64,000 nucleotides of DNA from contig CAWBPO010000001.1 of NCBI GenBank assembly GCA_963790795.1, forward strand, positions 332,073 to 396,072, read 5' to 3'. Positions 3,824-60,874 of the stretch are shown piece by piece. Origin of the DNA: an uncultured bacterium. Its GTDB lineage: Bacteria > Patescibacteriota > Minisyncoccia > Minisyncoccales > RBG-13-42-11. A program made the position numbers and the translations under genes. How positions within the stretch are numbered: position 1 is the first letter of the stretch; each line of letters opens with the position of its first letter. The notes beneath the pieces are model-generated. The model saw only the letters and a list, made by a program, of their open reading frames with translations. It did no database searches and had not been told where the DNA came from.

Positions 3824-5226
3824 AAAAAATAAATCAAGGTCAAATTCTTATCCAGGCGCTTGTTTTTGGAGCAATTGCAGCTTTTTTTGTCTCAGGACTT
3901 GTCAGTTGGTTTACTATTAGTTATAAAGCTTCGCGTCAAACATTTAATCGCGAACAAGCAATACAAATTGCAGAAGCAGGAATTGATTATTACCGTTGGC
4001 ACTTAGCGCACGCGCCCCAAGATTATCAAGATGGTACTGGCGGACCGGGACCTTATATCCACGACTTCCACGACAAAGATGGAAATATCATCGGGCAATT
4101 TACTCTTAATATTACTCCGCCGCCCTTAGATTCGACCTTGGTAACCGTTGAATCAACAGGAAAGGTGAGTGCCGATACGAATATTTCACGGGGTATTACT
4201 GTAAAATTAGCCAAGCCATCATTTGCGAAATTCGCATGGGTGCTAAACAGCGAATTCGTGAACTTTGGATCAGACGCCGAAGTGTTCGGTCCGATTCACT
4301 CAAATGTGGGAATCCGTTTCGACGGCCTTGCTCACAATATTATTACTAGCGCTGTTGCTGATTATAACGACCCTGACCATACTGGAGCAAATGAGTTTGG
4401 CGTTCATACTCACGGAAACACTTTAGATCCTGGGTCAGATCCTTTGCCGCCCTCATCCGTTCCAATTCGTCCTCTAATATTTGAGGCAGGACGTCAATTT
4501 CCTGTTCCTGCGGTTGATTTTACCGGGATAACCGTGGATTTGAAAGATATGAAAACGGACGCGAAAGATAACGGAGTGTATCTTAGCAACTCCGGGGCTT
4601 TAGGATATCGCATCAATTTACTTACAAACGATACATTTGACGTCTACCGCGTCAATTCCGTTATAGCTCCTTGTGGCGGAGCGACCACCTGGAGCATTTC
4701 GGGCAAGACGTTTCTCAAAAATTATCCGAATCCTACTAATGGTATTATTTTCGTAGAAGATCACATATGGGTGGAGGGACAAATTAATACTGCGCGTCTT
4801 ACTATTGCTTCTGGCCGTTTTCCTGATAATCCTTCGACACGCACGAATATCATTGCGAACAGTGACTTGCTCTACACAAATTATGACGGGAGTGACACCA
4901 TCGGACTTATTGCGCAAGGTAACTTTTATGTGGGTCTCAAAAGCGAAGATGATCTTCGCGTTGATGCTGCAATTATCGCGCAGAACGGTTACGTACGGCG
5001 GCTAAGTTACTCAAGTTCATCATGCGGTTCTACGCGAGAGCGTTCTCTTTTTACGAGCTACGGGATACTCGGTTCGAATCTTCGGCCCGCATTTGCTTAT
5101 TCATCATCGAACGGGTATCAAAGCCGGGTTTATATATACGATGCAAATTTACTTTATGGCCCGCCGCCGAGCTTTCCTTTAACTTCTGATCAATATGTAA
5201 CGCTTTCTTGGGAAGAAGTAAAATAA
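3820..5226 (+). CDS. Pilus-associated protein, PilX-like N-terminal anchor (tentative)
   Basis: ATGA overlap with the previous gene. The N-terminus MKKINQGQILIQALVFGAIAAFFVSGLVSWF resembles PilX-type anchors. 468 aa. Context is a pseudopilin operon. Confidence 0.5.
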   Translation: MKKINQGQILIQALVFGAIAAFFVSGLVSWFTISYKASRQTFNREQAIQIAEAGIDYYRWHLAHAPQDYQDGTGGPGPYIHDFHDKDGNIIGQFTLNITPPPLDSTLVTVESTGKVSADTNISRGITVKLAKPSFAKFAWVLNSEFVNFGSDAEVFGPIHSNVGIRFDGLAHNIITSAVADYNDPDHTGANEFGVHTHGNTLDPGSDPLPPSSVPIRPLIFEAGRQFPVPAVDFTGITVDLKDMKTDAKDNGVYLSNSGALGYRINLLTNDTFDVYRVNSVIAPCGGATTWSISGKTFLKNYPNPTNGIIFVEDHIWVEGQINTARLTIASGRFPDNPSTRTNIIANSDLLYTNYDGSDTIGLIAQGNFYVGLKSEDDLRVDAAIIAQNGYVRRLSYSSSSCGSTRERSLFTSYGILGSNLRPAFAYSSSNGYQSRVYIYDANLLYGPPPSFPLTSDQYVTLSWEEVK

Positions 5227-5432: not shown

Positions 5433-5460
5433 TTGCTTTTTTTATTGAATGTGGTAATAT
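5433..5460 (+). promoter_or_regulatory. Predicted sigma70-type promoter for ORF 5488
   Basis: TTGCTT (5433-5438), 16-nt spacer ending in TGG, then TAATAT (5455-5460). The SD AAGGAGGTG (5474-5482) follows. Confidence 0.5.
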
Positions 5461-5487
5461 ATAAAATCTTAGCAAGGAGGTGGTATC

Positions 5488-5724
5488 ATGCCAGACACAA
5501 CTTTGGATCAACTAGTTGCTACCGTTGGTTTTTCAAGTTGGGATGAGGCGATGCAAGCAATTTGCGAAAAGTGCAGCCTGAAGTTACAGTGCGCTGGAAA
5601 GCAGGAATGCGCCGCTAGAAAGGCTTTAGGAGTATTAGGGAGTATTGCTGCCACAGATACAGTACAGGTACATCTTTTCGCAAAGAACCTCAAAGGGGCG
5701 CTAAATAATGTTCATAACAGTTGA
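5488..5724 (+). CDS. Hypothetical small protein, 78 aa
   Basis: GGAGG core 7 nt upstream of the ATG, its own promoter, and a hairpin plus T-run at about 5739-5776. Cys-rich patch CEKCSLKLQCAGKQEC. No family recognised. Confidence 0.6.
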   Translation: MPDTTLDQLVATVGFSSWDEAMQAICEKCSLKLQCAGKQECAARKALGVLGSIAATDTVQVHLFAKNLKGALNNVHNS

Positions 5725-5799
5725 TCCGGTAGTCAAGAGAGCCTTTGACGTATATGTCGAGGCTCCCTTATTTTTATAAATAGATTAATTCGAGAGGAC

Positions 5800-5827
5800 T
5801 TGATTTTTTTATTGAATATGGTAGTAT
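5800..5827 (+). promoter_or_regulatory. Predicted sigma70-type promoter for ORF 5855 (near-copy of the 5433 promoter)
   Basis: TTGATT (5800-5805), 16 nt, then TAGTAT (5822-5827). The downstream 5' UTR and SD are about 80% identical to 5439-5487. Confidence 0.5.
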
Positions 5828-5854
5828 ATAAAATTATAAGCAAGGAGGGTTGAG

Positions 5855-6235
5855 ATGAAAACTGTAAAATGGCATTCTTGGAAAGGTATTCTCTACGGAG
5901 ATACAGGGAGGTTCAAGTTCTGGTCAGCGCAAATAACAGGAGAAGGCGATGAGAATTTGTCAAAGGATGCTCCCATGAAAGACTGGAAGAAAGTCGTTGT
6001 TCTCAGACCTTTGGGCAACCCGGAAACTGTTTTTGCCATAGGATTCAGCAACAAATTTGGCAGCACCAAAATATCTACTGCTCCCAGAAAGATAAAAGAA
6101 GGACCTTTTGGAATGAGAATGGGAGCAGAGGATTGCCAGTTCTTTATCACCAGCAACACAGAGGCAGTAAAGCTTGAGTTAGTAGGATATGTTGACGTGG
6201 ATGATAAGTCACAAGCTAACCTATCTTTATACTAA
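5855..6235 (+). CDS. Hypothetical protein, 126 aa
   Basis: SD AAGGAGGG 6 nt upstream of the ATG. No family recognised. Confidence 0.6.
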   Translation: MKTVKWHSWKGILYGDTGRFKFWSAQITGEGDENLSKDAPMKDWKKVVVLRPLGNPETVFAIGFSNKFGSTKISTAPRKIKEGPFGMRMGAEDCQFFITSNTEAVKLELVGYVDVDDKSQANLSLY

Positions 6236-6252
6236 GTGAGGAGGATATTTTG

Positions 6253-6468
6253 ATGGCTAAAATAGAAGGGCCTAAAATGCCCGACAAGGTAGATTTTTCT
6301 AGCAAGAATCCCAGAGTTAGAGAGATAAAAAGAATACTCCGAAAAGCCATAAAAGCAATTGAAGCCGGTCATAAAAAGGCCGTTCATAGTACCTTGCCGC
6401 CGTTTAAGACTTCATGTAGAGACGCTGGATTATCCGGCGCCTCTTTTAATTTTTTTTTAAAATGCTAA
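6253..6468 (+). CDS. Hypothetical basic small protein, 71 aa
   Basis: SD GAGGAGG at 6238-6244. The ORF track starts at TTG 6250, but ATG 6253 is more likely. No family recognised. Confidence 0.5.
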   Translation: MAKIEGPKMPDKVDFSSKNPRVREIKRILRKAIKAIEAGHKKAVHSTLPPFKTSCRDAGLSGASFNFFLKC

Positions 6469-6483
6469 GATATTAAAAGAAAT

Positions 6484-7571
6484 ATGATTTCGATTGCAGA
6501 GAAAATCGAACAATTACAGGAAAAGCTCCTCAAAATAGGAGACTGTCTTTGACGTAGCCAAAAAGAAAGAAATCATTGAAGAATTGGAAGGTCAAGCAGC
6601 AAAAACTGATTTTTGGCAGCAAAAAGAAAAAGCAATAGAAATCACTCAGAAGCTCAATGAGTTGAAAGAAGAGACAAAAGTGTTTGAAAGCTTAGTTAAG
6701 GAACTGGAAGATATTATAAAGTTGCAGAGCTTAGGTGAAAAAGAAGAAGAGCTGGAAAAAACAGTAAAGCAGTTTGAGATAAAGATGTCAAAAGAAGAGT
6801 TCAGGGTTTTTCTTTCCGGCAAATACGACAAAGGAGCAGCTATTTTATCAATTTATGCTGGAAGCGGAGGACAGGATGCGCAGGACTGGGCAACAATGCT
6901 TTTGAGAATGTATGAAAGACACTGCGTCTTTCAAAGGATTGCAATTCAAAATACTCAACCAGTCATTCGGTGAAGCAGGAGGCCCGGAAGGCAGAATCGG
7001 CACAAAATCTGTCAGTACAGAGATAAAGGGGAATTATGCTTTCGGCTTTTTAAAAAAGGAAACAGGAGTTCACAGATTGGTCAGAATTTCTCCTTTTTCA
7101 GCCAAATCGCTCCGTCATACTTCTTTTGCTCTGGTGGAGTTGTTGCCTGTGATTGAAAAAGAAGACGAAATTGAAATAAAGCCAGATGATTTGAAAATTG
7201 ATTTTTACCGCGCTTCAGGACCTGGCGGCCAGAATGTAAATAAAAGGGAAACTTCGGTCAGGATTACTCATTTGGTTAGTGGTGTTGTTGTTTCCTGCCA
7301 GTCAGAGAGGACGCAGGCCAGCAACAGGAAAAAAGCGATGATCATGCTTTCTTCAAAGCTTTACCAGATTCAGCAGGAAACAAAGCAAAAAGAATTATCA
7401 AAGGCAAAAGGAACAAAAATATCTGCCAGCTGGGGAAATCAGATAAGGTCATATGTTATTCATCCTTATAAACTGGTGAAAGACCTGCGTACAGGAGTTG
7501 AAACTTCCGCAGTTGAATCGGTTTTAGACGGAGATTTGGATAAATTCATTGAAAAAGAAATTAAATTATAA
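6484..7571 (+). CDS. prfB: Peptide chain release factor 2, with the programmed +1 frameshift plus one extra unexplained +1 frame break
   Basis: ATG 6484 gives MISIAEKIEQLQEKLLKIGDCL, then CTT TGA C at 6547-6553. The +1 frame continues DVAKKKEIIEELEGQAAKTDFW...AGSGGQDAQDWATMLLRMYER. A second +1 break lies within CACT at 6920-6923. After it the sequence reads ASFKGLQFKILNQSFGE...GVHRLVRISPF...SGPGGQNVNKRETSVRITH (GGQ motif). Confidence 0.9.
6538..6553 (+). promoter_or_regulatory. prfB autoregulatory +1 frameshift site
   Basis: GGAG (6538-6541), 5 nt, then CTT TGA C (6547-6553). This is the classical RF2 recoding cassette. Confidence 0.85.
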
Positions 7572-13111: not shown

Positions 13112-13828
13112 AATCCGCGGGCGCAATCGATTATTCCCAAGACATTGCCCCCGCCTTACCCCGCCTCAGTCGCATCGGGCGACCTGCTCGTTCTGGTTAT
13201 TCGGGCCTGAAGCCAAGCACCGCCAACAGCGGTTCGGTTACCACCCCAACCGGCTGGACGCTCATCACCTGGCTTACCGGAGCGGGCGGCTACAGCGCCG
13301 CGCTTGGCGCTGATACCGGCAACACCAACGTATTTTCGTATTATAAAGTCGCCGACGGAACAGAGTCCGGTGGTCGCTTGGAGTACAGATTGCTGAGAGC
13401 AGGCGTCTCATGGTCACAGATGTACCACTTGACAAATACTTCAAAAGTATGGAGCGTCGCCGGCACGACCGGCTCGGACGTGACAGGAAACACAACCGTT
13501 TCCATCGCCATGTCCTCTAATCCGGAGGTTACCGCTGGAGATTATATCCTCGGGGCCATGGTGATCCCGACAGACGTGACGACGCCCAGCCAGTTTTCGG
13601 CGGAGGCCTTTTCGCAGACGGGAGTGACTTTCGGCACGGTGACCGAAATCTCGGAACCCGATTACACGGTCGGAAACGACATCGGCGGCTTTATCGTTTA
13701 TTCTTCCGTCTCGTCCGGCACAGGCTCCGCCGCTCCCACCATGACGGCAACCGCCGGAGGAACGGTGACCAATGTGCGGGGGCCGGGAATTTTTATCAGG
13801 GTGCGGGCGACCGGAACTGTCGCCTGCC
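13112..13828 (+). repeat. High-GC tandem repeat, copy 1 (period about 717-720 bp)
   Basis: TACCCCGCCTCAGTCGCATCGGGCGACCTGCTCGTTCT at 13157 recurs at 13877. The unit encodes ...YPASVASGDLLVLVI..SGSVTTPTGWTL..YYKVADGTESG..GDYILGAMVIPTDVTTPSQFSAEAFSQTGVTFGTVTEISEPD..GPGIFIRVR. Confidence 0.85.
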
Positions 13829-14545
13829 GATCCGCGGGCACTGCTCACGTATAGTGATACCGCAATGTTTCCCGCCTACCCCGCCTCAGTCGCATCGGGC
13901 GACCTGCTCGTTCTCGTTATCGGCATGAAGCCCAGCTCGGCCAATAGCGGTTCGGTTACCACCCCAGACCGGCTGGACGCTCAATCACCTCGCTTACCGG
14001 AGCCGGAGGCTACGGAACCACGCTTGGAGCGGACACGGGGAACACCAATCGTTTTTACTTATTATAAAGTCGCAGACGGGACAGAATCTGGTTCTTTAAC
14101 GGTTACGATCGCTACCAACAATGTCTCTTGGGCTCAAATGTATCGTTTCAGTACTAACGCAACAATAATTTGGAGCGTAGCCGGTGCGACCGGGTCGGAC
14201 ACGACAGGCAGGCACCGCCGTTTCCATTGCGATGACCTCTGATCCTGGAGGTGACCGCCGGGGATTATATTCTCGGGGCGATGTGCATCCCGACAGACGT
14301 GACGACGCCAAGCCAGTTCTCGGCGGAAGCACTTTTCGCAGACGGGCAGTGACTTTCGGCACGGTGACCGAAATCTCGGAACCCGACAGCACGATCGGGA
14401 ATTCGACATCGGCGGCTTTATCGTTTACCAAGCGCCCGTCACGTTCAGGCACAGGCTCCGCCGCTCCGACCATTGACGGCTACCGCCGGAGGAACGGCTG
14501 ACCAATGTGCGGGGACCCGGGGATTTTTATCAGGGTAAGAGAAGT
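13829..14545 (+). repeat. High-GC tandem repeat, copy 2 (carries extra single-base indels relative to copy 1)
   Basis: Aligns to copy 1 over its whole length. It differs by substitutions and by isolated 1-nt insertions (for example CCAGACCGG vs CCAACCGG, CAATCACC vs CATCACC, AATCGT vs AACGT). Confidence 0.85.
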
Positions 14546-26028: not shown

Positions 26029-26056
26029 GAAATAAATTTCTCTTGAAAGGAGTAAA

Positions 26057-26212
26057 ATGGACAGAATAAAGAGTTCTTTAAAAATAATTTTAGATTCTAT
26101 CGGCGTATGGATTATAACGCCAATAATTATCGTTATTTCGGCAGTATTGTTATTGGTATTTTTCCCCGTATGGTTCCCATTACGGGATAGAATCGCAAAG
26201 TGGCTTGAGTAA
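26057..26212 (+). CDS. Small membrane protein, 51 aa (MDRIKSSLKIILDSIGVWIITPIIIVISAVLLLVFFPVWFPLRDRIAKWLE)
   Basis: Below the cutoff of the ORF track. SD AAAGGAG ends 7 nt upstream of the ATG. It has its own promoter and two predicted TM segments. Confidence 0.45.
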   Translation: MDRIKSSLKIILDSIGVWIITPIIIVISAVLLLVFFPVWFPLRDRIAKWLE

Positions 26213-27979: not shown

Positions 27980-28064
27980 CTTGCGTACAGTTTTTTTAAA
28001 GGGTAAAATGAAAAAAGCTGTAATCGAAGGTTGAAAAAAGACGAGGAAAAGATATATTAAAACA

Positions 28065-29408
28065 ATGGCTAAAAAACATAAAAAAATATCAAAGAAAATT
28101 GCTGCCAAGCCCGCAAAGCCCGAGAAAACGGACAAAGAAGAACAGATAAAAAGAACCAAAATCAGGGTTATCGGCATCGGCGGAGGAGGAGGCAACATCG
28201 TCTCTGAAATTTCTTCAAAAATATCAAAAGCCAATTTTGTCGTTGCCAATACCGACACAAAATCTTTAAAAGGCTGCAGCAGGAAAGTGGGGAAGTTCCA
28301 ATTCGGCCAGAGCTTGACTCACGGTTTGGGAACCGGCATGAATGCCGAATTGGGAAAAGAAGCAGCTTTAAGCGAAAAGGAAAGAATCAAGAAGCTTTTG
28401 GAAGACTATGATTTGTGCATTTTGGTTGCTTCTTTGGGCGGTGGAACCGGCTCTGGAGCTGTTTCAACCTTTGCCAGGATTTCCAAGAACTTAGGCAACC
28501 TTACTTTCGGAATATTCACTTTGCCTTTCAAATTCGAGGGGGAAAAGAAAATGGAAATCGCCATAAATTCTTTGAAAGAAGTGAAGAATCATTTGAATGC
28601 CGTTGCTATCATTCCCAATGAAAAAGTTTTCCAAATCATCAACAAAGACACTCCTTTAAAAGAAGCTTTATCCGTTATCAATAAGTTTTTGTCTGAAAGT
28701 TTGGGAGGGTTGATTGAAACGATTTACGATCCGGGATTGATAAACATTGATTTTGCCGATTTCAGGACAATTATGGAGGGCAGGGGAAAGCTGGCTTATT
28801 TGAATACAGTGGAAGTCCAGAGAAAAGAAGGCGCAATCAAGGACATTGCTATCAGGGTGCTCAATTCTCCTTTGTATCCTTACACCATTCGGGGAGCCAA
28901 AGGAGTTTTATTTAACATTGCCGGCGAAAGGAATCTTTCTCTTTCCGACGTCAACCAAATATCAAGGGCGATTTCCGAACTGGTCAATCCGGAAGCCAAG
29001 ATCATTTTCGGCATCGCCCAGAACAAGAAGTATTCCAACGTCATAAAAACAATTCTTTTTGCTACGGGCTGCGGCATGAAAATAGGCTCTTCCAAAAAGA
29101 GGAAAGTCAGATCTTCAAAGCCGGTTAAGAGAAAGCCAAGAACAAAGCCGAAAGAAGAAAAGCAGAACGTTGCTCAGAAAAAGAAAAGAACTGTCCGCAA
29201 AAAGAAAATCAGAAAGAAAAGAAAGCAGGCAAAAACAGAATCATTAGAAACCCAGCAAGAAGAAGTTTCAAATACTGATAATGAAAAAGTGAGGAAAAAT
29301 GCTTTGCAGATAAGACAGGAAGCAGATGATCTTGAAAAAGAGATGGCTGAAAAGGAAAAGGTTTGGGAAGTTCCTGCCTTTTTAAGGAGGAAAACGGAAA
29401 AAGGATAA
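28065..29408 (+). CDS. ftsZ: Cell division protein FtsZ with a long basic linker
   Basis: IRVIGIGGGGGNIV, GLGTGMNAELG, SLGGGTGSGAV and the C-terminal peptide VPAFLRRK. Confidence 0.95.
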   Translation: MAKKHKKISKKIAAKPAKPEKTDKEEQIKRTKIRVIGIGGGGGNIVSEISSKISKANFVVANTDTKSLKGCSRKVGKFQFGQSLTHGLGTGMNAELGKEAALSEKERIKKLLEDYDLCILVASLGGGTGSGAVSTFARISKNLGNLTFGIFTLPFKFEGEKKMEIAINSLKEVKNHLNAVAIIPNEKVFQIINKDTPLKEALSVINKFLSESLGGLIETIYDPGLINIDFADFRTIMEGRGKLAYLNTVEVQRKEGAIKDIAIRVLNSPLYPYTIRGAKGVLFNIAGERNLSLSDVNQISRAISELVNPEAKIIFGIAQNKKYSNVIKTILFATGCGMKIGSSKKRKVRSSKPVKRKPRTKPKEEKQNVAQKKKRTVRKKKIRKKRKQAKTESLETQQEEVSNTDNEKVRKNALQIRQEADDLEKEMAEKEKVWEVPAFLRRKTEKG

Positions 29409-34157: not shown

Positions 34158-35191
34158 AAAAAGCAATTATCGCGCTTTCAGGAGGAATAGATTCTTCAGT
34201 GCCGTAGCCCCTTTTAAAAAAAGACAATTTTGATGTTATTGGAGTTTTTATGAAATTAGCTGATTTGCCGAATTTTCGCGATTCAGAAAAAAGAGTCAGA
34301 AGAATTGCTAAAGTTTTAAAAATACCATTTCTGGTTTTGGACTTGAGAAAAGAGTTTAAAAAAAGAATTATTGATTGTTTTTTAAAAGAAAATAAGAAAG
34401 GATTAACTCCAAATCCCTGCATTGTCTGCAATAAAGAGATTAAATTCGGCTTATTTTTGGACAAAGCCGTAAAATTGAAAGCCGACCATATTGCTACCGG
34501 CCATTTCGCCAGAATTGTTGAGGATCGACCTCAACAATCTTATAAGCTGTGTAGGGGCAAGGATAAGGAAAAAGACCAGAGCTACTTTTTGTGGCGGTTA
34601 AACCAAAAGCAGCTGAAAAAAGTTTTGCTGCCGATTGGAAATTATACTAAGAGAGAAGTTGAGAGCTTGGCGAGAAAATTCAAATTGTCATTTTTGGTTA
34701 AGATTACAAAATCTCAGGAGATTTGCTTTATTGAGGGCAAACTTGAATCGTTTTTGAAAAAGCGATTGGGAATTAAGCCTGGCAAGATTGTTGACTTGCA
34801 GGGAAAAGTATTGGGCAGACACCAGGGATTATGGTTTTATACTGTCGGACAGAGAAAGGGGATTGGATTTTCCGGCGGCCCGTATTATGTTTTGGGAAAA
34901 GATTTGAGAAAGAATTTTTTAATTGTTGATAAAAATGAAAAAAACCTGTATAAAGAAGAATTGGCTGTCAGAAACGCAAATTGGATTTCCGGAAACAAAC
35001 CGAAATTCCCTTTGAAAGTAACGGCAAAAATACGTTACCGCCACAAAGCGGTTCTGGCAATTGTTATCAAGGGCGCGAATCCCGGAACTCTCCGCCTGAA
35101 ATTTAAGAAGCCGCAGAGGGCAGTTACCCCTGGCCAGTCAGCGGTTTTTTACAAGGGCAGGGAGCTTTTAGGAGGAGGTGTAATTTATTAA
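34154..35191 (+). pseudogene. mnmA: tRNA 2-thiouridylase MnmA, in-frame TAG at codon 18 as assembled
   Basis: MKKAIIALSGGIDSSVP*PLLKKDNFDVIGVFMKL (PP-loop SGGxDS). Later CIVCNKEIKFG and the rest of MnmA are intact. Confidence 0.85.
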
Positions 35192-35192
35192 A

Positions 35193-39896: not shown

Positions 39897-39941
39897 ATAA
39901 CAACAGAACATTATAATAGGTTAAAGATAGGAGGTGGAATA

Positions 39942-40202
39942 ATGTCCACTGATACAAAAGAAAAAAAGAGAAAATATTATACAGTTATTTTAACAGGCAT
40001 GCTCAAGGGGACATGTTTACCCATACAAGAAGAAATGCATTTTGTTAAAGCAGTGAATGATGAAGAGGCATTAAAGGAAGTTAAAGAACTTGTTAAGGAA
40101 AAAGAAAGGCAAGATAGCAGTTATGGGTGGTGGAATATCGATGTTGTGAAAGCCCCCAATGGAAAGATTATCTATTCTCATAACAGGAAAACTTCCTCCT
40201 AA
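39942..40202 (+). CDS. Hypothetical small protein, 86 aa
   Basis: SD AGGAGGTGG at 39929-39937. The terminator at 40228-40253 follows. No family recognised. Confidence 0.55.
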   Translation: MSTDTKEKKRKYYTVILTGMLKGTCLPIQEEMHFVKAVNDEEALKEVKELVKEKERQDSSYGWWNIDVVKAPNGKIIYSHNRKTSS

Positions 40203-41059: not shown

Positions 41060-41386
41060 ATGGCTAAAAAATTATATGTAGGTGGGTTATCTTATGACAC
41101 CACCGATGCCACTTTAAAGGAGACTTTCTCCGCAGCTGGGACAGTTGAATCGGCGGCCGTCATTATAGACAGAATGAGCAACCGTTCAAAAGGATTCGGT
41201 TTTGTGGAAATGTCAACCGATGAAGAGGCACAAAAAGCTATTGAGATGTTTAACGGTAAGGATATTGACGGTAGAAATGTTACGGTGAACGAAGCCCGTC
41301 CTATGGAGGCAAGAGCTCCCAGACAAGGCGGATTCAACCGCGGTAGCAGAGGAGGATTTGGTGGAGGTAACAGAGATCGCTGGTAA
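41060..41386 (+). CDS. RRM-type RNA-binding protein with a Gly/Arg-rich tail
   Basis: KLYVGGLSY (RNP-2), KGFGFVEM (RNP-1) and a C-terminal RGGFGGGNRDRW. Confidence 0.85.
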   Translation: MAKKLYVGGLSYDTTDATLKETFSAAGTVESAAVIIDRMSNRSKGFGFVEMSTDEEAQKAIEMFNGKDIDGRNVTVNEARPMEARAPRQGGFNRGSRGGFGGGNRDRW

Positions 41387-41461: not shown

Positions 41462-41530
41462 GGTAGAAGACTTGACTTTTTTATAAAAAGATGTAGTTTT
41501 AAAATAGCACAAAAATATTGGAGGTGAGAA

Positions 41531-41989
41531 ATGACAGGATTATTTTCTAGTCATTCATTTTTAAACGAGGAAGAAACAAAGGTAGCTTCAGGTTTCGATT
41601 CGGCAGCTTTCGCAATACAAAGAAAAAAGATACTGTATCTGAGAGAAGTTGCCAGGAAGAAAGGAATAACCGCTGAAAAGCTTGAGGACTTGAAATCTGA
41701 AAGTGGCAAGCCTTTTGTGGAAGAAAAACGCAAGGGGCATTGGGGCCACGATTATAGAAGGGCAGTAGTTACAGAGGATAAGTCATTCGGCCCTCACATA
41801 GCAGAAACCGCTTATCTTTGCCAAGGAATATATTCAAAAGAAGACCCTGACAGTTGCGGATGGGTAATAGGGGACCCCATCGAGGAAAAATATGATGAGA
41901 TTGAAGTTTTAAGCGGTTCAAGAGGAACAAGATATTATTGCGGGATTTGCGGAAAACAAATAGGAGAACATAAAACAGCTGTTTCTTAG
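41531..41989 (+). CDS. Hypothetical protein, 152 aa, with a C-terminal zinc-ribbon-like CxxC
   Basis: SD TGGAGGTG 5 nt upstream of the ATG. C-terminal YYCGICGKQIGEH. Two terminator hairpins lie downstream. No family recognised. Confidence 0.55.
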   Translation: MTGLFSSHSFLNEEETKVASGFDSAAFAIQRKKILYLREVARKKGITAEKLEDLKSESGKPFVEEKRKGHWGHDYRRAVVTEDKSFGPHIAETAYLCQGIYSKEDPDSCGWVIGDPIEEKYDEIEVLSGSRGTRYYCGICGKQIGEHKTAVS

Positions 41990-42184
41990 TCCTAATAACA
42001 ATACAGAAAAAGTATCAGAGACCGTCCTTGACATAAGTCATACGACGGTCTTTTCTTTTATCCCAAATAAGTTTTAACACCATTTAAAAAGAGGGGTTCG
42101 CTCAGCCCTCTTTTTCATTTAAAAGATTTAAGCTATAACAAACCACAGTTTGATATATCGAACAAAGTTCGTTATAATAAAACA

Positions 42185-44101
42185 ATGATTAAAAAAGAAA
42201 ATCTCTATTATCCAAGTGAAGATTTCAAGAAAAAAGCCTGGGTAAAAGACGAGAAGATTTACAAAGAGGCAGAGAAGGGCCCGATTAAATTCTGGGAGAA
42301 ACTGGCCGGAGAATTGAAATGGCAGAAAAAATGGGGAAAAGGCTTTGAGCACCAGGCGCCGTATTTTAAGTGGTTTTTGAACGGGAAATTAAACATTGTT
42401 GAAAACTGCTTGGACAGGCACCTTAAGGATAAAAAGGACAAAATAGCTTTGATCTGGCAGCCAGAGCCAATTAATGAAAAAGCAAAAACTTTTACTTACC
42501 AAGAACTATTTGTTGAAGTAAATAAATTCAGCAATGCTCTTTTAAAGCTTGGAGTTGTCAAAGGAGACAGGGTTGGTATATATATGCCGATGATTCCTGA
42601 AGTGATAATTTCAATGCTGGCTTGTGCCAGAATCGGAGCTGTTCATACGGTTGTTTTCTCCGCTTTTTCAGCAACCTCCCTTCAGAGCCGCTTGATTGAT
42701 TCTGAAGCAAAAATCCTGATTACTGCTGACGGATATTACAGGAATGGAAGTTTGATTAATTTGAAAAACAATGCTGAAGAATCTTTAAAAGATACTTCTG
42801 TTGAAAAGACGGTGGTGGTAAAGCGGGCTGGCAACCAGGTAAATTGGCAAGAAGGTAGGGATTTATGGTGGCATGAGTTGGTTAAAGACGAGAAAGATTC
42901 TTGCGAAGCTGAAACAATGGATTCAGAAGATCCTTTGTTCATTCTTTACACTTCAGGCTCAACAGGCAAACCCAAAGGATGTTTGCATGTTGTTGGAGGT
43001 TACGCAGTTCAGGCTCATGCTACTTCAAAACTGATATTTGATTTGCATGATGATGATATTTTTTGGTCCACAGCTGATGTTGGCTGGATAACCGGCCACA
43101 CTTACAGTTGCTACGGACCTTTATTGTGCGGAGCAACCTTTATTATTTTTGAAGGATTGATAATTTCTCCTGGGCCTGACAGATGGGCGAAAATTATTGA
43201 CGAACACAAAGTAACGATTTTCTATACCGCTCCCACAGCCATCAGAATGTTTGAGAAAAACGGGGCAGAAGTTTTCAAAGATTACAAATTAGACACTTTG
43301 CGGCTTTTGGGTTCGGTCGGCGAGCCGATAGATGAGTCAGCCTGGCTCTGGTATTTTAAAGAAATCGGCAAAGAAAAGTGCCCGCTTGTTGATACCTGGT
43401 GGCAGACAGAAACAGGCGGAATCCTGATTACTTCTTTGCCGGGGATAGGGCCATTCAAGCCAGCTTTCACCGGCCTGCCTTTTCCCGGATTAAAGTTTGA
43501 TATTTTGAACAAGGAAGGAAAATCCTGTTCTTCCAACGAAAAAGGCAATTTGGTTTTATTTTCGCCCTTTGCTCCTGGTCTACTGCGGGGAATTTACAAA
43601 AATCCTGAGAAATATCTGGAAACTTACTGGAGCCAGTACGGAAAAGAAGTTTATTTCAGTTCTGACGGCGCTTTTAAGGATGAAAACAACTTAATCAGGA
43701 TTATCGGCAGGGTTGATGATGTCATTAAAGTGGCAGGCCACAGAGTTTCTACAGGAGAACTGGAAGCGGCGATCAACCAGCATCCTGATATTACAGAGTG
43801 CGCTGTCATTGGAATACCAGACGAGATAAAAGGCGAAGTACCCTTAGCTTTTCTGGTTTACAAAGGCCATAAACCTGCTGACCAAGTCAAACAGGAAGCA
43901 ATAGGGCATATTAAGAAAGAAATAGGGCCGATTGCCATGCCAAAAGAAATTTATCTGGTTGAAGATTTGCCCAAAACAAGGTCTGGAAAAATAATGAGAA
44001 GGACTTTAAGGCAATTATTCAGCGGTGAAGAATTAGGGGATTTATCCACTTTGGCTAATCCTGAAATCGTTGAAAATATTAAAGGAATAATTCAAAAATG
44101 A
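42185..44101 (+). CDS. acs: Acetyl-CoA synthetase (AMP-forming)
   Basis: 638 aa. YTSGSTGKPKG, WWQTETGG and PKTRSGKIMRR. Confidence 0.95.
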   Translation: MIKKENLYYPSEDFKKKAWVKDEKIYKEAEKGPIKFWEKLAGELKWQKKWGKGFEHQAPYFKWFLNGKLNIVENCLDRHLKDKKDKIALIWQPEPINEKAKTFTYQELFVEVNKFSNALLKLGVVKGDRVGIYMPMIPEVIISMLACARIGAVHTVVFSAFSATSLQSRLIDSEAKILITADGYYRNGSLINLKNNAEESLKDTSVEKTVVVKRAGNQVNWQEGRDLWWHELVKDEKDSCEAETMDSEDPLFILYTSGSTGKPKGCLHVVGGYAVQAHATSKLIFDLHDDDIFWSTADVGWITGHTYSCYGPLLCGATFIIFEGLIISPGPDRWAKIIDEHKVTIFYTAPTAIRMFEKNGAEVFKDYKLDTLRLLGSVGEPIDESAWLWYFKEIGKEKCPLVDTWWQTETGGILITSLPGIGPFKPAFTGLPFPGLKFDILNKEGKSCSSNEKGNLVLFSPFAPGLLRGIYKNPEKYLETYWSQYGKEVYFSSDGAFKDENNLIRIIGRVDDVIKVAGHRVSTGELEAAINQHPDITECAVIGIPDEIKGEVPLAFLVYKGHKPADQVKQEAIGHIKKEIGPIAMPKEIYLVEDLPKTRSGKIMRRTLRQLFSGEELGDLSTLANPEIVENIKGIIQK

Positions 44102-53686: not shown

Positions 53687-55488
<1,802 letters not shown>

Positions 55489-55682
55489 TCTAATTTTTTA
55501 AATTAGAACAAAGTGTCGGCTGGAGTTGAAGGGGAAGAATTCTCTCTTTGACTCTGAGGTGTTGGCCAACGCACCTTAAAGGTTGGCTTTCGGGACAACT
55601 TCAAGCAACTGAAATAATTAATACGCGTAAGCGTATTTTTTATTTGTTTTTTTTAATTTTTTTGATATACTGAGAATATATT

Positions 55683-55969: not shown

Positions 55970-56647
55970 ATGGTTTTAGATTGGTATTCAGCAACCATTC
56001 AAGCTTTTCAGCTTCTTTGGCAGGACTTTTTGCAATTTATTCCAGTTTTGCTCGGAGCAATCATATTGTTTGTCATTGGTTGGTTCATTTCAGTCGGCAT
56101 AGGCAAACTGATCACCGAAATCTTAAAGAAACTGAGATTCAACAAGATTTTTGAAAAAGGAGATTGGAAAAACGCCTTGGATAAAGCCGAAATCAAAGTT
56201 GACCCTTCAGGTTTTGTCGGAGCGATCATCAAATGGATTTTGGTTATCGTCTTCTTGCAAATATCAGTGGGAATTTTAGGCTGGACGGATTTTTCCGTTC
56301 TTCTCGGAAAAGTGATTGCTTATTTGCCCAATGTTGTTGTGGCTGCTTTGATTTTCGTAGTAGCTGTTATCGTGGCTGACATTATCCAAAAAGTGGTGGT
56401 GGCAGCAGCAGAAGGCGCAAGGTTTACCTATACAAGAACTGCTGGAGCAATTATCAAATGGGCTATCTGGCTTTTTGCAATTTTGGCCATTCTCAGACAG
56501 CTGATTATTGTTCCTGAGCTCGTTGATGCTTTGTTTGGAGCGTTGGTTTATGGCGTCGTCGCTGTTTTCGTGATTGCTTTTGGTTTGGGCGGCAAAGATG
56601 TGGCAGCGGAATTTCTGCAGGATTTGAAGAAAAAGTTAAAAGAATAA
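55970..56647 (+). CDS. Conserved-TM-helix-repeat membrane protein (MscS-N-terminal-like), encoded between tRNA-Ala and 23S
   Basis: 225 aa with about 5-6 TM helices and repeated GxIIKWxxxxxFLxxxL-type segments (GAIIKWILVIVFL, GAIIKWAIWLFAIL). The family call is tentative. Confidence 0.65.
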   Translation: MVLDWYSATIQAFQLLWQDFLQFIPVLLGAIILFVIGWFISVGIGKLITEILKKLRFNKIFEKGDWKNALDKAEIKVDPSGFVGAIIKWILVIVFLQISVGILGWTDFSVLLGKVIAYLPNVVVAALIFVVAVIVADIIQKVVVAAAEGARFTYTRTAGAIIKWAIWLFAILAILRQLIIVPELVDALFGALVYGVVAVFVIAFGLGGKDVAAEFLQDLKKKLKE

Positions 56648-56718: not shown

Positions 56719-58906
56719 TGATTTTAGGTATGAGAAACACAAGACAATTCTTAAACAAAGGAAGCAGCTAAAAATTTCTGGGCTTTTTTATGTCTCAGAA
56801 ATCGTCCTGCTTCCAACGGGGCGATTTTTAATTGATTGGAAAGTTCGTTGAAAACTGAATACGTCGTAACCGTCAAAAAAAATATACTCATTTTGTGGTT
56901 ATTAATTGCTAGCTCAGCTTAGCTGGATTTATTTCTAGTTAACTGGGCAATCAATAAATTTTAAAAGCATATGGTGGATGCCTTGGGAGATTGAGGCGAT
57001 GAAGGACGTGGCGTGTCTGCGATAAGCCTCGGGGAGGTGGCTAGCAACCTTTGATCCGGGGATTTCCGAATGGGACAACCCTGCACTGCGAAAAACAGTG
57101 TAACGCATTGTTAAACAATGCGAGCAAACCTGGGGAAGTGAAACATCTCAGTACCCAGAGGAAAAGAAAACGAAGTTAATTCCCTTAGTAGCGGCGAGCG
57201 AAATGGGAAGAAGCCCAAACCCGTTTTTTCGCAAGAGAAAATGGGGGTTGTAAGAAGATAACGTCGGGAGCCGAGTACATAATTTTTTTATGTGCTTGGT
57301 ACCTGAGGGAGAATATTTTGGTAGAGGTTGGTTAGAAGAATCTCTCTGGAAAGAGAAGCCAAAGAAGGTAAAAGCCCTGTATTCGAAAACTCCTTTACGC
57401 TCCTTGTTATTTATCTTGAGTATCTCGAGAAACGATATCCTTGAGAGAAACAGGCCGGACTAACCGGCTAAGGCTAAATACTCAATCTCACCGATAGTGA
57501 ACCAGTACCGTGAGGGAAAGGTGAAAAGTAGGGAGGTGATCCCGGTGAAATAGAACCTGAAACCATCATGCTTACAAAGAGTCGGAGTCCCGCTTGCGGG
57601 ATGACGGCGTGCTTTTTGCAGAACGAGCCAACGAGTTTGACCATACAGCTTGTCTAAACCCTTTTGGGGCGGAGACACAGTGAAAGCAAGCGTTAATAGC
57701 GCATTTTCGTTGTATGTTCAAGACCCGAAGCCAAGCGAGCTTGCCATGGCCAGGGTGAATTCCGGAGAAATCCGGGAGGAGGCCCGAACCCGTGAGCCGT
57801 TCAACACTCTGGGATGAGCTGTGGTAAGAAGTGAAAAGCTAAACGAGCTTGGTAATAGCTGGTTCTCCCCGAAATAGCTTTAGGGCTAGCGGTACCTCAA
57901 TTTTTCTAGAGGTAGAGCACTGGAAGGAACATCGTGGCTTTTGCTAGATATTCCTACCAAACTCCGAATGCTAGAAAAAATTAGTACCAGTAAGACTGTG
58001 GGGGCTAAGCTCCATGATCAAAAGGGAAACAGCCCAGATCTTCATCTAAGGTCCCTAAACTAAGCTAAGTGTTTTTAAGGAAGTGAAGCGCCTATGATAG
58101 TTAGGAGGTTAGCTCAGAAGCAGCTATCCTTTAAAAAGTGCGTAATAGCTTACTAACTAAGGAGTTTTGCACCAAAGATTTATCGGGGCTAAGCTTAGTA
58201 CCGAAGATAAGGCTTTGCATTTTTTTCGAAAAGTGCAAGGGGTAGGGGAGCATTCTTCATTCAGTGAAGCCGAATCGTAAGGTTTGGTGGAGGATGGAGA
58301 AGCGAGAATGTTGGCATGAGTAACCGCAATGCCGCTGAGATAGCGGCACACCGAAAACCCAAGGTTTCCTTGGCAATGAAAATCATCCAAGGGTTAGGCG
58401 ATCCTTAGTCCGTGACCGAAAGGTTAGGATGATGGACAGCCGGTTAATATTCCGGCCCCCAAGCGCATTTCTGAAGAGTGACGCAGTTGAAATTTCCGGG
58501 AAAATTATCGGATTTTTAGACCAGGATTTGTTCTGGTCGTCTCGGAGATCAAGCTGCCAAGAAAAACTCGTAGGGTTAAATGCGTTTGGTCCGTACCGCA
58601 AAACCAACACAGGTGGGTTGGTGTAAACGCACCAAGGTGAACGGGTGAAACCTCGTTAAGGAACTAGGCAAAAAAGTGATCGTAAGTTCGCAATAAGATC
58701 TTCCCGCTTTTAGCGGGACGCAGCGAAAGTACCCCAGGCGACTGTTTACCAAAAACACAGGTCCCTGCTAAACTCGTAAGAGGATGTATAGGGGCTGAGG
58801 CCTGACCAGTGCTGGAACGTTAATCCCGAGGGTGTTTGCCGCAAGGTGAATGCTCATTGGGTGAAGCGCCAGTGAACGTCCGCGGTAACTATAACCGTGT
58901 TAAAGT

Positions 58907-59609
58907 AGCAAATACGCACTGCTTTAGTAAAATCTGGCTATATGCTGGGAACTCTGGAGTATCCGGTACTACTCTGATATAATTAGTTAAGGTAAAGTTA
59001 TACCTTATCAATATGTCAAGTAAAAAAGTATTCGGCGCAGACAATCAGCAGGAAAGGCTTAGATTTATCGGATGGATAGTAGGATTTGTCGATGGAGAGG
59101 GATGCTTCACAGTAAGTTTTTTTAAACATCCTAAATCAAGACTGCGTTTGAAGTGGCAAGTATTTCCTGAGTTTGTTATTACTCAAGAAATAAAAACGAA
59201 AAATGCAGTTGAAAGGATCAAGAAATTATTCAATTGTGGAGCAATCTACCTTAATAAAAGACATGATAATCATCACGAGCATCTCCTGAAATACGTAGTG
59301 AGAAATCGCGAAGATCTGATGAAGAAAATTATTCCATTCTTTGAGAAATATCCATTATTATCTGCAAAGAAGAAAGATTTTCAGATTTTTGCGAGAATTG
59401 TCCGAATGATGAACAAAGGAGAACATCTTAAAGAAAAAGGACTGAAGAAGATACGCTTGATGGTCAGAAAAATGAACAATCGTAAATTCCGATAAACTTA
59501 AGAATCCTCAGAGGCCATACGCCAGACTCGCTGATATTTTAGCGAGAAGATATGGTCCGAACTTCATGGCGACATGAAGAATTCCACAAATGTGGATGTA
59601 ACACAATTG
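58907..59609 (+). mobile_element. Group I intron in 23S (about E. coli position 1931) carrying a LAGLIDADG gene
   Basis: Excision restores TTAAAGT-AGCGTAATCCCTTGCCAGGTAAGTTC (E. coli CTAAGGTAGCGAAATTCCTTGTCGGGTAAGTTC). The exon ends in U and the intron ends in G. P1 forms between exon TAAAGT and intron GCTTTA (58922-58927). S-like GAGAAGATATGGTCC is present. Confidence 0.8.
59013..59495 (+). CDS. LAGLIDADG homing endonuclease (single-motif, I-CreI-like)
   Basis: 160 aa with the WIVGFVDGEGCF motif. Located inside the 23S intron. Confidence 0.9.
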   Translation: MSSKKVFGADNQQERLRFIGWIVGFVDGEGCFTVSFFKHPKSRLRLKWQVFPEFVITQEIKTKNAVERIKKLFNCGAIYLNKRHDNHHEHLLKYVVRNREDLMKKIIPFFEKYPLLSAKKKDFQIFARIVRMMNKGEHLKEKGLKKIRLMVRKMNNRKFR

Positions 59610-60249
59610 AGCGTAATCCCTTGCCAGGTAAGTTCTGGCCCGCACGAAAGGCTTCACGACTTGGGGACTGTCTCAACGAGGCGCCCGGTGAAAACGCAAT
59701 ACCGGTGAAGATGCCGGTTACCTACGGCTAGACGGAAAGACCCCGGGAGCTTTACTGTATTTAGACATTGGATTTTGATTTTGGATGTGTAGTGTAGCGG
59801 GGAGTCCCTCTTTTTGAGGGACGCCAATGAAACACCCGCCTTTCAAGGTCTTTATTCTAATCTCGCTTTTAGCTGGAAACAGTGTTTAATGGGCAGTTTA
59901 AGTGGGGCGCTTGCCTCCTAAAAGGTAACGGAGGCGTTTATTAAGGTCGGCTAGGCACGGATGGAAATCGTGCTCGTCGTGTAAAGGCATAAGCCGGCTT
60001 GACTGCGAGAGGGATAACTCGAGCAGAGAGGAAACTCGAACTTAGTGAACCGACCGTGGTTAGTAGAACCGCGGAAGATCATCAACCAAAAGCTACCCCG
60101 GGGATAACAGGCTGGTAGAGCCCGCGAGTCCACATCAACGGCTCTGTTCGGCACCTCGATGTCGGCTCATCTCATCCTGGGGCTGGAGTAGGTCCCAAGG
60201 GTTTGGCTGTTCGCCAATTAAAGAGGTACGTGAGCTGGGTTCAAACCGT

Positions 60250-60535
60250 CGACTAGAGCTTGTTACTGTTAGCAAGCTAGGCGGCCTGTGATAGTAATAT
60301 CACAGTGAATAAATCGACTCATATCGGTGAATTCCTCACATTACAATCTGTCGTATGTTAGGATAATACCGAGGGAAGTCGTGTACGAAAAAATTAGTAA
60401 AAAGTTCGTATACTGACCCCGTAGAGACTTAACCTTAAATGGTTAGAGCCGCAAAAGAGCGGCTAAAACGTCGATTGCCCAATTTATTTTGGGTAATGGT
60501 ATAGTCCATACATTTAGTAATAAATGAGAAATATG
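60250..60535 (+). mobile_element. ORF-less group I intron in 23S (about E. coli position 2593, peptidyl-transferase region)
   Basis: Excision restores GAGCTGGGTTCAAACCGT-CGTGAGACAGGTTGGTCCCTATC. The exon ends in U and the intron ends in G. P1 forms between exon CCGT and intron GCGG (60279-60282). The core CCGAGGGAAGTCG...CCCCGTAGAGACTTAA...GGTATAGTCC is shared with the 16S intron. Confidence 0.75.
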
Positions 60536-60677
60536 CGTGAGACAGGTTGGTCCCTATCTACCGTAGGCGTCAAGTCTTGAGGAGAGTTCTCCCTAGTACG
60601 AGAGGACCGGGAGGAACTGACCTCTGGTGTACCAGCTGTTCCGCCAGGAGCATCGCTGGGTAGCTAAGTCGGGAACT

Positions 60678-60708
<31 letters not shown>

Positions 60709-60874
60709 AGGATCCAAGATTAGGACTTCTAGATTCCCCGAAGAACACGGGGTTGATAGGCTGCAGGTGTAAGTGCAGCAATGCATTCAGCCGAGCAGTA
60801 CTAATAAATCATTGATTTTTTAATTGCCCTTAAATGCTGGGCTAGTAATTAATAACCGTAAAGCAAAGGGCGTT

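Follow-up and report, generated by a model that had tools for sequence, protein, structure and literature searches.

The window analyzed here, 64 kb of DNA out of a 538,786-bp source contig (CAWBPO010000001.1), is part of a Patescibacteria chromosome (candidate phyla radiation, CPR; Parcubacteria type) in which the anti-Shine-Dalgarno (anti-SD) core of 16S ribosomal RNA (rRNA) has decayed, a decay that extends across a deep clade. Anti-SD loss in Parcubacteria is already published at survey level, and a core gene set free of Shine-Dalgarno (SD) motifs is the expected consequence of this known loss. What appears to be new is a recurrent, cross-lineage class of genes whose ribosome-binding sites (RBSs) perfectly complement a 16S tail that the genome does not encode. 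These SD-led genes, six of which lie in the window, sit beside what look, from their promoter geometry, like widespread leaderless starts in CPR.

The Anti-SD Core Is Replaced in the 16S rRNA Gene

The window contains one rRNA operon, in the order 16S, tRNA-Ile, tRNA-Ala, an open reading frame (ORF) of 225 amino acids (aa), 23S (56951-60825) and 5S. Three features describe the 16S gene:

53687-55489, plus strand: full-length 16S rRNA gene (Rfam SSU_rRNA_bacteria, 1361 bits, model positions 1-1533)
54475-54739, plus strand: group I intron within the 16S gene (Rfam Intron_gpI, 63 bits)
55482-55486, plus strand: CUACA replacing the anti-SD core CCUCC (seen in the sequence and in the gap-free Rfam alignment to GGAUcACCUCCUUu; the tails of relatives are identical or more decayed)

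The terminal stretch of the gene is ...GGGGAACCUGUCGGUGGAUCACUACAUUUCU, and the letters at 55470-55495 are gtcggtggatcactacatttct. Its 3' end, GGAUCACUACAUUUCU, aligns without gaps to the Rfam counterpart GGAUCACCUCCUUU; over the last 14 consensus positions, GGAUcACCUCCUUu in Rfam stands against GGAUCACUACAUUU in the window, with no gap; the core differs by substitution at three positions. GGAUCA(C) and UUUCU are kept on either side of it, and where a canonical tail has CCUCC between GAUCA and UU(A/U) at the 3' end, this gene has CUACA. The reading of CTACA in place of CCTCC at this site, first made in an earlier note on this DNA, is thus confirmed by both the sequence and the alignment.

No CCUCC is present in the mature 16S or in the internal transcribed spacer. 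The sole CCUCC of the gene lies in the intron (54722-54726), where it forms one strand of the P9 hairpin, and it was rejected as a spare anti-SD because that stem is paired. We also rejected the possibility that an intron splits the tail, as there is no CTCCTT exon downstream and the variants of the relatives resemble stepwise decay.

Tail Decay across the Clade

To compare the 16S ends of related organisms, we scanned one genome per GTDB species and then JGI metagenomes, using as key the unusual helix 45 of this lineage (one extra base pair) and leaving five tail positions free; a second 16S copy with a standard helix 45 would escape this pattern. Decayed tails were found in 57 of the 59 independent CPR contigs sharing the helix-45 type (related contigs and loci are numbered with the prefix L). 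The GTDB scan matched seven CPR contigs, with the tails UACAU (three contigs: L006, L012, L016), UACUU (L004), AUCAU (L009), UUAAU (L023) and canonical CUCCU (L013); the full tail sequences are CACUACAUUU, CACUACUUUU, CACAUCAUUU and CACUUAAUUU, and the canonical one is CACCUCCUUU. The 52 contigs matched in the JGI metagenomes have the following tails after CAC:

UACAU, 27 contigs; UAAAU, 7; UUAAU, 6
AACAU, 3; AUCAU, 3; UACUU, 2
ACAUU, 1; UUCAU, 1; CUCAU, 1; canonical CUCCU, 1

The nearest relatives have UACAU, UACUU or AACAU. The series CUCCU > CUCAU > NUCAU > UACAU > UAAAU reads like a stepwise decay that would have followed once constraint was lost. Insertion-free contigs are 79-92% identical to the window over the last 250 nucleotides (nt) of 16S, values that we used because insertions close to the 3' end distort the identities of the other contigs; since even these contigs share just 79-92% with the window, the clade is deep. 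Tail loss is therefore common to the relatives and phylogenetically coherent.

According to passages of Tsurumaki et al. (2022, RNA 28:1041, PMC9297842), CCTCCT is present in only 48% of Parcubacteria 16S genes and absent from about 52%; the same passages describe an overlap of the Parcubacteria without the motif with the group lacking uL1, and link the loss to uL1 absence. The rplK-rplA region was not identified within the 64-kb window. Organisms without CCUCCU are generally without SDs too (Amin et al. 2018, PMC6107228).

Six ORFs with Strong SD Motifs

Six small ORFs of the window are preceded by SD motifs of canonical type:

5433-5724, plus strand: cassette 1, A/T-rich extended -10 module at 5433-5467, SD AAGGAGGTG at 5474-5482, 78-aa Cys-rich ORF at 5488-5724
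5800-6235, plus strand: cassette 2, duplicate promoter module at 5800-5834, SD AAGGAGGG at 5842-5849, 126-aa ORF at 5855-6235
6238-6468, plus strand: cassette 3, SD GAGGAGG at 6238-6244, 71-aa ORF at 6253-6468, directly upstream of prfB
26046-26212, plus strand: cassette 4, SD AAAGGAG at 26046-26052, 51-aa hydrophobic peptide at 26057-26212, duplex free energy (dG) -12.2 kcal/mol
39929-40202, plus strand: cassette 5, TATAAT box 12 nt 5' of SD AGGAGGTGG (39929-39937), 86-aa ORF at 39942-40202
41519-41989, plus strand: cassette 6, SD TGGAGGTG at 41519-41526, 152-aa ORF at 41531-41989, conserved four-Cys family

The motif lies 7 nt from the ATG in ORF 5488, 6 in 5855, 8 in 6253, 4 in 26057, 7 in 39942 and 6 in 41531. 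SD strength was scored as the best duplex of positions -20 to -3 with the canonical tail, and random 18-mers of the window served as background. In five ORFs the dG ranges from -12.2 to -18.4 kcal/mol, the latter being the value of cassette 1 (5488); ORF 39942, for which the gene picker had taken an upstream TTG start, was scored separately and also reaches -18.4. The probability of dG <= -12 among random window 18-mers is 0.008. SD strength in the window is bimodal, with a gap between the six sites and all other genes and no excess of half-decayed motifs. The six starts and motifs listed in the earlier note thus exist as quoted and are strong outliers against the canonical tail. Its description of these ORFs as lineage orphans needs correction; strict orphans they are not, given that ORF 41531 has 14 homologues and ORF 5855 has 50.

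The homologues of ORF 41531 share 43-82% identity and four invariant cysteines. Its AlphaFold2 (AF2) model is confident (pLDDT 84), and a fold search of this model against the PDB gave no match at E < 0.4. The 50 homologues of ORF 5855 are representative ones, 24 of them at E <= 1e-10. Judged by these homologues, at least two of the six ORFs are members of small families of conserved proteins. None of the six received a Pfam or PHROGs assignment, and their GC content, GC at third codon positions (GC3) and codon usage are native to the genome. Phage relatives were found neither in PHROGs nor in four IMG/VR scans and three INPHARED tblastn searches; plasmids were not searched.

The promoter-plus-leader module of cassettes 1 and 2, 55 nt from TTGnTTTTTTTATTGAATnTGGTAnTATATAAAAT to GCAAGGAGG, occurs at 5433-5487 and 5800-5854 with 91% identity in front of two different ORFs. 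Three of the cassettes lie between a tRNA gene and prfB, a site at which the relatives L088 and L090 have different ORFs. No repeat of the tRNA-Thr 3' end and no att-type flanking repeat occurs beside the cassettes in the window, and a stretch of 17 nt at 5736-5752 that matches the prfB shift site is no more than chance would give. The cassettes do not regularly end in a terminator, and a search of the window for further SD-led mini-ORFs of 12-49 aa yielded none that was convincing. An RRM-domain protein with a Gly-rich tail is encoded between two of the cassettes (41060-41386; Pfam RRM_1, 2e-21); there is no evidence linking it to them.

SD-Led Genes on Other Contigs and the Anatomy of the Motif

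In the family of ORF 41531 (seven homologue contigs plus the window), GGAGG is kept 5-7 nt before the start in 8/8 orthologues, whose proteins share 47-82% identity and whose leaders have otherwise diverged. Among the SD-less genes of the homologue contigs are mur genes, ftsW, murG, mraY, gltX, nusA, tig, pnp, rpsO, greA and others; the same contigs carry runs of small Pfam-less ORFs, each with an AAGGAGG-type site. A syntenic island of L024 and L084 contains 8-9 small SD-led ORFs between mraY and murL, and GGAGG is intact in 7/7 of the orthologous leaders, some of whose flanks are 30-40% divergent. An ungapped comparison of the L024 and L084 leaders, in which 1-nt spacer indels misaligned three pairs, was nonsignificant in a Fisher test. 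Among 120 independently called genes of seven related loci, an SD was found in 25 of 42 Pfam-less genes versus 2 of 78 Pfam-annotated ones (Fisher p = 1.5e-12), a count with some ascertainment bias, as the loci were reached via an SD-led family and L024 and L084 are related. SD conservation among orthologues does not by itself show selection in anti-SD-less cells: L024, L026, L082 and L084-L087 may carry canonical tails, and the canonical-tail contig L013 shows that SD-less core genes are no proof of a decayed tail.

SD-led genes also occur within 10 kb of a decayed 16S gene on four other independent contigs:

L036, tail UAAAU: three SD-led genes, two of them with zinc-ribbon Pfam hits
L076 and L046, tail AUCAU: SD-led helix-turn-helix protein
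L081, tail UACAU: SD-led gene(s)
L031, tail AACAU: SD-led 98-aa ORF in the spacer (3932-4243)

The 98-aa ORF of L031 (TTAGGAGGTGATAAGGA-ATG) follows just after the decayed 16S tail (CACAACAUUUCU), a position without a counterpart in the window. At L034 4640-4800 (minus strand), three tandem 53-nt units each consist of AAGGAGGT, 12 nt and ATG.

A set of 32 non-redundant SD sites has the consensus AAGGAGGTGA, with 4-9 nt between GGAGG and the start (mode 6, 16 of 32 sites). The GGAGG core is preceded by A in 22/32 sites and followed by TG in 13/32, versus 1.4 expected (p = 4e-10). The resulting consensus, AAGGAGGUGA at 6 nt before ATG, is the exact complement of the canonical tail UCACCUCCUU. 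Its distance to the ATG is fixed, while anything from 6 to 14 nt separates it from the -10 box; it is also found inside operons, within the end of the upstream ORF. By every classical criterion, the motif behaves as a translation-initiation signal and not as a promoter element. Position and conservation among orthologues are those of a classical SD; the complementary anti-SD is missing from the resident 16S. With the 15-nt tails of their own organisms, the sites pair weakly: those of the window lie between -2.6 and -6.3 kcal/mol, those of L036 between -0.7 and -2.5, and L076 is at -2.0 (-0.7 to -6.3 overall), compared with -12 to -21 for the same sites against the canonical tail. Among NNNNGGTG sites at SD spacing, only xGGAGGTG recurs, which indicates no adaptation of the GGAG core to the new tail.

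Taken together, these sites define a genuine minority class of small accessory genes, which have their own promoter or lie in an island and whose short leader carries AAGGAGGUGA about 6 nt before the ATG. Such a class of cassettes inside anti-SD-less genomes was not found in the literature searched.

Core Genes Lack SD Motifs, and Many First Genes Have Predicted Leaderless-Type Starts

The core genes of the window present a different picture. For 49 ATG genes of at least 100 aa, the mean dG against the canonical tail is -3.3 kcal/mol versus -3.25 for the background. Pfam-confirmed genes without an SD include ftsE, ftsX, ftsZ, acs, ppsA, prfA, rpmE, gap (AAGGA only), mnmA, sufBD and the gene for a D-Ala-D-Ala carboxypeptidase. 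Complementarity to the organism's own tail is not enriched before starts either, and a compensatory SD for the new tail was rejected, as no 7-mer of AGAAAUGUAGUGAUCC is enriched there. GGAGG is not avoided inside coding regions (61 seen versus 59.9 expected from synonymous-codon shuffles, ratio 1.02). Large orphan ORFs of the window (3820, 15683, 20005, 20704, 21702, 22592 and 37610) are SD-less as well, so that SD status does not merely reflect the absence of a Pfam hit.

Instead of an SD, several of these genes have a -10 box at a fixed distance from the start codon. Two examples are:

42173-42187, plus strand: predicted leaderless-type start of acs, TATAAT at 42173-42178, 6 nt, ATG at 42185 (promoter geometry)
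28053-28065: predicted leaderless-type start of ftsZ, TATATT at 28053-28058, ATG at 28065 (promoter geometry)

A TAnnnT box lies exactly 6 nt before the ATG in five SD-less genes of the window (21702, 26411 on the minus strand, ftsZ 28065, 37610 and acs 42185). For 213 SD-less genes from all related loci, the -10 distance peaks at 6 nt with 18 genes, compared with at most 8 at other distances, and the box is often preceded by TG, giving an extended -10. Internal genes have A-rich, SD-free junctions. The promoter geometry of the first genes of transcription units fits leaderless mRNAs, a signature that we did not find described for CPR in the literature searched.

These data support the view that core genes initiate translation without SD pairing by the resident ribosome. 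A ribosome of this kind had been proposed from the tail and from the missing motifs before ftsE, ftsX, ftsZ, acs, ppsA, prfA and rpmE and the bare AAGGA before gap; all of these absences were reproduced, and the proposal gains from the lack of enrichment, of a compensatory motif and of GGAGG avoidance as well as from the leaderless geometry. The suggested duplex scan against both tails places the core at background for each and the small ORFs as outliers for the canonical one. L013, the only relative with a canonical tail and usable flanks, has nine SD-less ORFs there. Because the flanking genes of a canonical-tail contig are also SD-less, SD-independence probably came first and allowed the tail to decay.

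The stretch 35170-35192 holds one more SD-like site, the seventh: AGGAGGAGGTG at 35170-35180, 14 nt upstream of the ATG of a ZIP transporter gene. It arises from three AGG Arg codons that end mnmA. A classical SD would stand closer to the start, and no AGGAGGAGGTG-like motif precedes the ZIP homologue of L026.

The prfB Recoding Site

The gene for release factor 2 (RF2) has its usual shift site after a short first ORF:

6484-6553, plus strand: prfB ORF1 (start 6484) and +1 recoding site CTT TGA C (6547-6553)

The shift site is kept in L088 and, as CTT TGA A, in L090. As the earlier note had pointed out, a GGAG is present 5 nt before CTT TGA C (6538-6553). The SD-like stimulator of prfB is expected about 3 nt upstream, pairing with the 16S anti-SD; here (A/G)GGAG stands 5 nt upstream and there is no anti-SD. 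In the window, AGGAG (6537-6541) pairs with CTCCT (6526-6530) in a predicted hairpin. This cis hairpin, CUCCU/(A/G)GGAG, is predicted at -6.7 to -7.0 kcal/mol in three lineages (window 6526-6553, L088 9748-9775, L090 9943-9970), of which L088 and L090 have RF2 proteins 78-81% identical to that of the window; 2 nt separate the end of the hairpin from CUU. The Leu codon CTC, seldom used here (6.9%), forms part of the upstream arm, and both arms are also under protein-code constraint. In other bacteria an SD:anti-SD helix stimulates the frameshift, and the hairpin may take the place of that helix, a suggestion to be taken only as a lead.

Compared with uninterrupted relatives, prfB of the window has one extra base near 6922-6925, and the frame changes at GTC TTT C AAA GGA (6915-6930). 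Relatives at 78-91% identity read ...RMYERYCV(I/F)KG(F/L)QFKILN... unbroken at this second break. The extra base falls in a T run, and an assembly error in this homopolymer is its likeliest cause; it is also conceivable that the gene is a pseudogene or undergoes a second +1 shift.

Insertions in the rRNA Operon and a Repeat Region

The 225-aa ORF between tRNA-Ala and 23S (55970-56647) has a Pfam match to a mechanosensitive-channel transmembrane helix (2.6e-17), and an ORF of 225/226 aa is found at the same operon position in L031, L075 and L043. The 23S gene spans 3875 nt versus 2925 nt for the model, which implies insertions, and a 160-aa ORF (59013-59495) lies inside it. Many relatives have ORFs of about 200 aa within 16S, with leaderless-type promoters of their own (gatataat, 6 nt, ATG). 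Upstream of helix 45, the conserved AAGTCGTAACAAGG reads AACATGAACAAGG in L006, L023, L030-L033, L036, L039, L043 and others. AACATGAACAAGG probably marks an insertion junction near 16S position 1500, and the altered AAGTCGTAACAAGG stretch would defeat standard primers of the 1492R type. Elsewhere in the window, at 13750-14510, a near-identical repeat accgccGGAGGaacgg(c)tgaccaATGTGC occurs at about 13755 and 14487; this region is G+C-richer and repeat-rich, with ORFs overlapping on both strands.

Origin and Possible Readers of the SD Motifs

The hypothesis that we favor as the most economical, with a probability of roughly 0.45, is that the cassettes come from a pool of accessory genes that this lineage shares with anti-SD-keeping Parcubacteria, and that their SD is a carried-over signal in this genome. 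Under this hypothesis, Parcubacteria as a group would translate core genes without SD, and lineages that keep CCUCC would use the anti-SD for a small set of accessory genes, shaping and maintaining the SD. The pool would circulate among Parcubacteria and form islands, and the cassettes of the window would have kept their original RBS. The resident 16S core could not pair with it, and cassette translation would proceed here by SD-independent entry on the short A/U-rich leader, perhaps aided by a weak helix with the UCAC and UU flanks that the tail has kept. In favor of this origin, the cassettes form islands in variable genomic contexts, transposases occur near the L026 island, and the site beside the tRNA gene is occupied by other ORFs in L088 and L090. 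Moreover, a promoter/SD module has been duplicated before two different ORFs, and the motif is shaped exactly like a canonical anti-tail. Several observations weigh against it. A family member has yet to be seen in a genome with a proven CCUCC, and no phage or IMG/VR relatives of the cassettes were found; the six ORFs have native GC, GC3 and codon usage; the bimodal SD strength without half-decayed sites fits either selection in place or a very recent arrival; GGAGG is intact in all seven L024/L084 leaders despite 30-40% divergence in some flanks; and real SD-led genes lie at most 10 kb from the decayed 16S of L036, L076/L046, L081 and L031. The proposal that the SD-bearing ORFs are foreign or that their GGAGG has another role is narrowed by the evidence: their composition is native, they have no phage relatives in the databases searched, and their families occur only in similar CPR contigs, with the SD kept in 8/8 orthologues. 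Genes related to type IV secretion were noticed near the compared loci (a TrwB/VirD4-like coupling protein and a type IV secretion pilin; L088 1-1488, L090 575-2338, L082 10098-10490).

If the SDs are not merely carried over, they could still work in anti-SD-less cells, GGAGG(UGA) being read by a partner other than the visible core of the 16S tail, such as a trans-acting RNA with UCACCUCC, an RNA-binding protein specific to the motif, or an endonuclease that measures from the motif where to cut and so makes leaderless mRNAs. We regard this as the main rival, somewhat less probable than the carried-over reading. It would explain why GGAGG is kept in the eight orthologues (47-82% identity) and the seven syntenic island pairs while the remainder of the 41531 leaders diverged, why strength is bimodal without decaying intermediates in genes of native codon usage, and why the pattern recurs beside decayed 16S genes on five independent contigs, the window included; the fixed ATG spacing, variable -10 distance and occurrence in operons likewise point to an RNA-level role linked to the start codon. 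No candidate partner was found, however: the mature 16S has no CCUCC, the one in the intron is paired in P9, and neither the window nor any examined locus has a conserved UCACCUCC element outside coding sequence. The relatives that show SD conservation may themselves carry canonical tails. We know of no precedent for SD function without an anti-SD, and published surveys report no SD where the anti-SD is absent. A conserved hairpin sequestering the SD was rejected, since 26 folded leaders share no consistent structure, and this also counts against the motifs being read. Stated more generally, there might be two initiation routes in anti-SD-less Parcubacteria, one leaderless and SD-free for the core and one SD-dependent for accessory genes, the latter read by something besides the resident 16S tail; this is less likely than not, and candidates for the reader would be an RNA or protein acting in trans, a processing enzyme guided by the SD, or ribosomes that are not resident, for example those of a host. 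The last option leads to specialized ribosomes with a second, canonical 16S, encoded elsewhere in the genome or derived from a host. Such a 16S would account for the exact complementarity of AAGGAGGUGA to the canonical tail, the window covers only 64 kb of its 538,786-bp source contig, and two anti-SD types within one genome have been reported for Alteromonas. On the other hand, CPR genomes usually have one rRNA operon, and the core genes show no SD use at all. The single canonical-tail contig of the helix-45 type in each scan has a different spacer and for that reason belongs to a different organism. We consider this explanation improbable. It is about as hard to accept that the resident tail reads the sites weakly in the canonical register, with only extended "super-SDs" surviving. 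The helix would then consist of the retained UCAC and UU flanks plus one G-C and one G-U pair, and would need very long SDs. Sites of the GGAGGUGA type do reach -7.7 to -10.4 kcal/mol against their own 19-nt tail (window 5488, 39942 and 41531; L081; L031), and TG(A) after the core is strongly enriched; sites without UGA, however, reach only -1.1 to -3.9 (window 5855 and 26057; all three of L036; L076). The invariant part is GGAGG, whose G and A face mismatches in this register; no site is re-tuned towards UGUAGUG, and the tails 3' of CAC vary among lineages. Finally, the altered tail could be an assembly or sequencing artefact in an organism with a normal anti-SD, a concern to which the probable 1-nt homopolymer error in prfB, at least one such error being present in the window, lends some color. 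The tail, however, differs from the consensus by three substitutions and no indel; 57/59 independent contigs from many samples have decayed tails, in phylogenetically coherent variants and with UACAU, UACUU or AACAU in the closest; and the core genes lack SDs as a real loss predicts. Mis-assembly of the tail, which the earlier note had entertained, is excluded by the decayed tails of the relatives, and an artefact of any kind has a negligible probability.

If the SDs are only carried over, they mark gene flow between anti-SD-keeping and anti-SD-less CPR lineages and would demonstrate that a strong SD may survive with nothing to read it. If they do have a reader, this would be a bacterium with SD-dependent initiation that does not use the 16S anti-SD, which would change the view of initiation and offer a model for orthogonal translation; the two-route arrangement, if true, would be a natural orthogonal translation system. 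In either case, start codons in such genomes will be misplaced by gene callers whose training yields a single RBS model for each genome.

Comparison with Known Systems

The Parcubacteria subgroup of Tsurumaki et al. (2022, PMC9297842), as described in passages of that paper, shows the same phenomenon and is very probably the same clade as the window; those passages contain no replacement sequences, SD-usage analysis, leaderless starts or SD-led subset. A phylogenetically coherent variant or absent anti-SD is likewise found in Chryseobacterium, Blattabacterium, Mycoplasma and Carsonella (Lim 2012; Amin 2018, PMC6107228). Like the core genes of the window, bacteria lacking CCUCC show neither SD enrichment nor a compensatory SD (Lim 2012; Amin 2018). 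Surveys of such species found no SD in 120 of 128, a near-match in 5 and an SD in 3 (Lim 2012; Amin 2018, PMC6107228). In the surveyed species the SD is absent genome-wide, and the window differs in having a discrete class of strong, extended canonical SDs. The core genes thus conform to the absence of SD enrichment that characterizes anti-SD-less lineages; the six cassettes and the SD-led class in relatives do not.

The cassettes resemble prophage "morons" in being small ORFs with their own promoter and RBS that lie between core genes, beside a tRNA, and vary among relatives. They differ from them in having no phage genes, att repeats or phage homologues. With Actinobacteria, Deinococcus and haloarchaea, which are rich in leaderless mRNAs, the window shares a -10 box placed at a constant distance of 6 nt from the ATG, which implies that transcription begins with the start codon; its leaderless starts are predicted from sequence, and those groups, unlike the window, retain a functional anti-SD for leadered genes.

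The Bacteroidia offer a parallel in layout: reportedly, their anti-SD is sequestered, their core genes are SD-free and a strong SD precedes rpsU. An SD-independent core with A-rich starts, next to very few genes with strong SDs, would thus be common to the Bacteroidia, as they are said to be, and the window. The gene concerned in the Bacteroidia encodes a ribosomal protein, whereas the SD-led genes of the window encode small accessory proteins with no function assigned; and the Bacteroidia keep the anti-SD that reads their few SDs, whereas in the window that core is gone.

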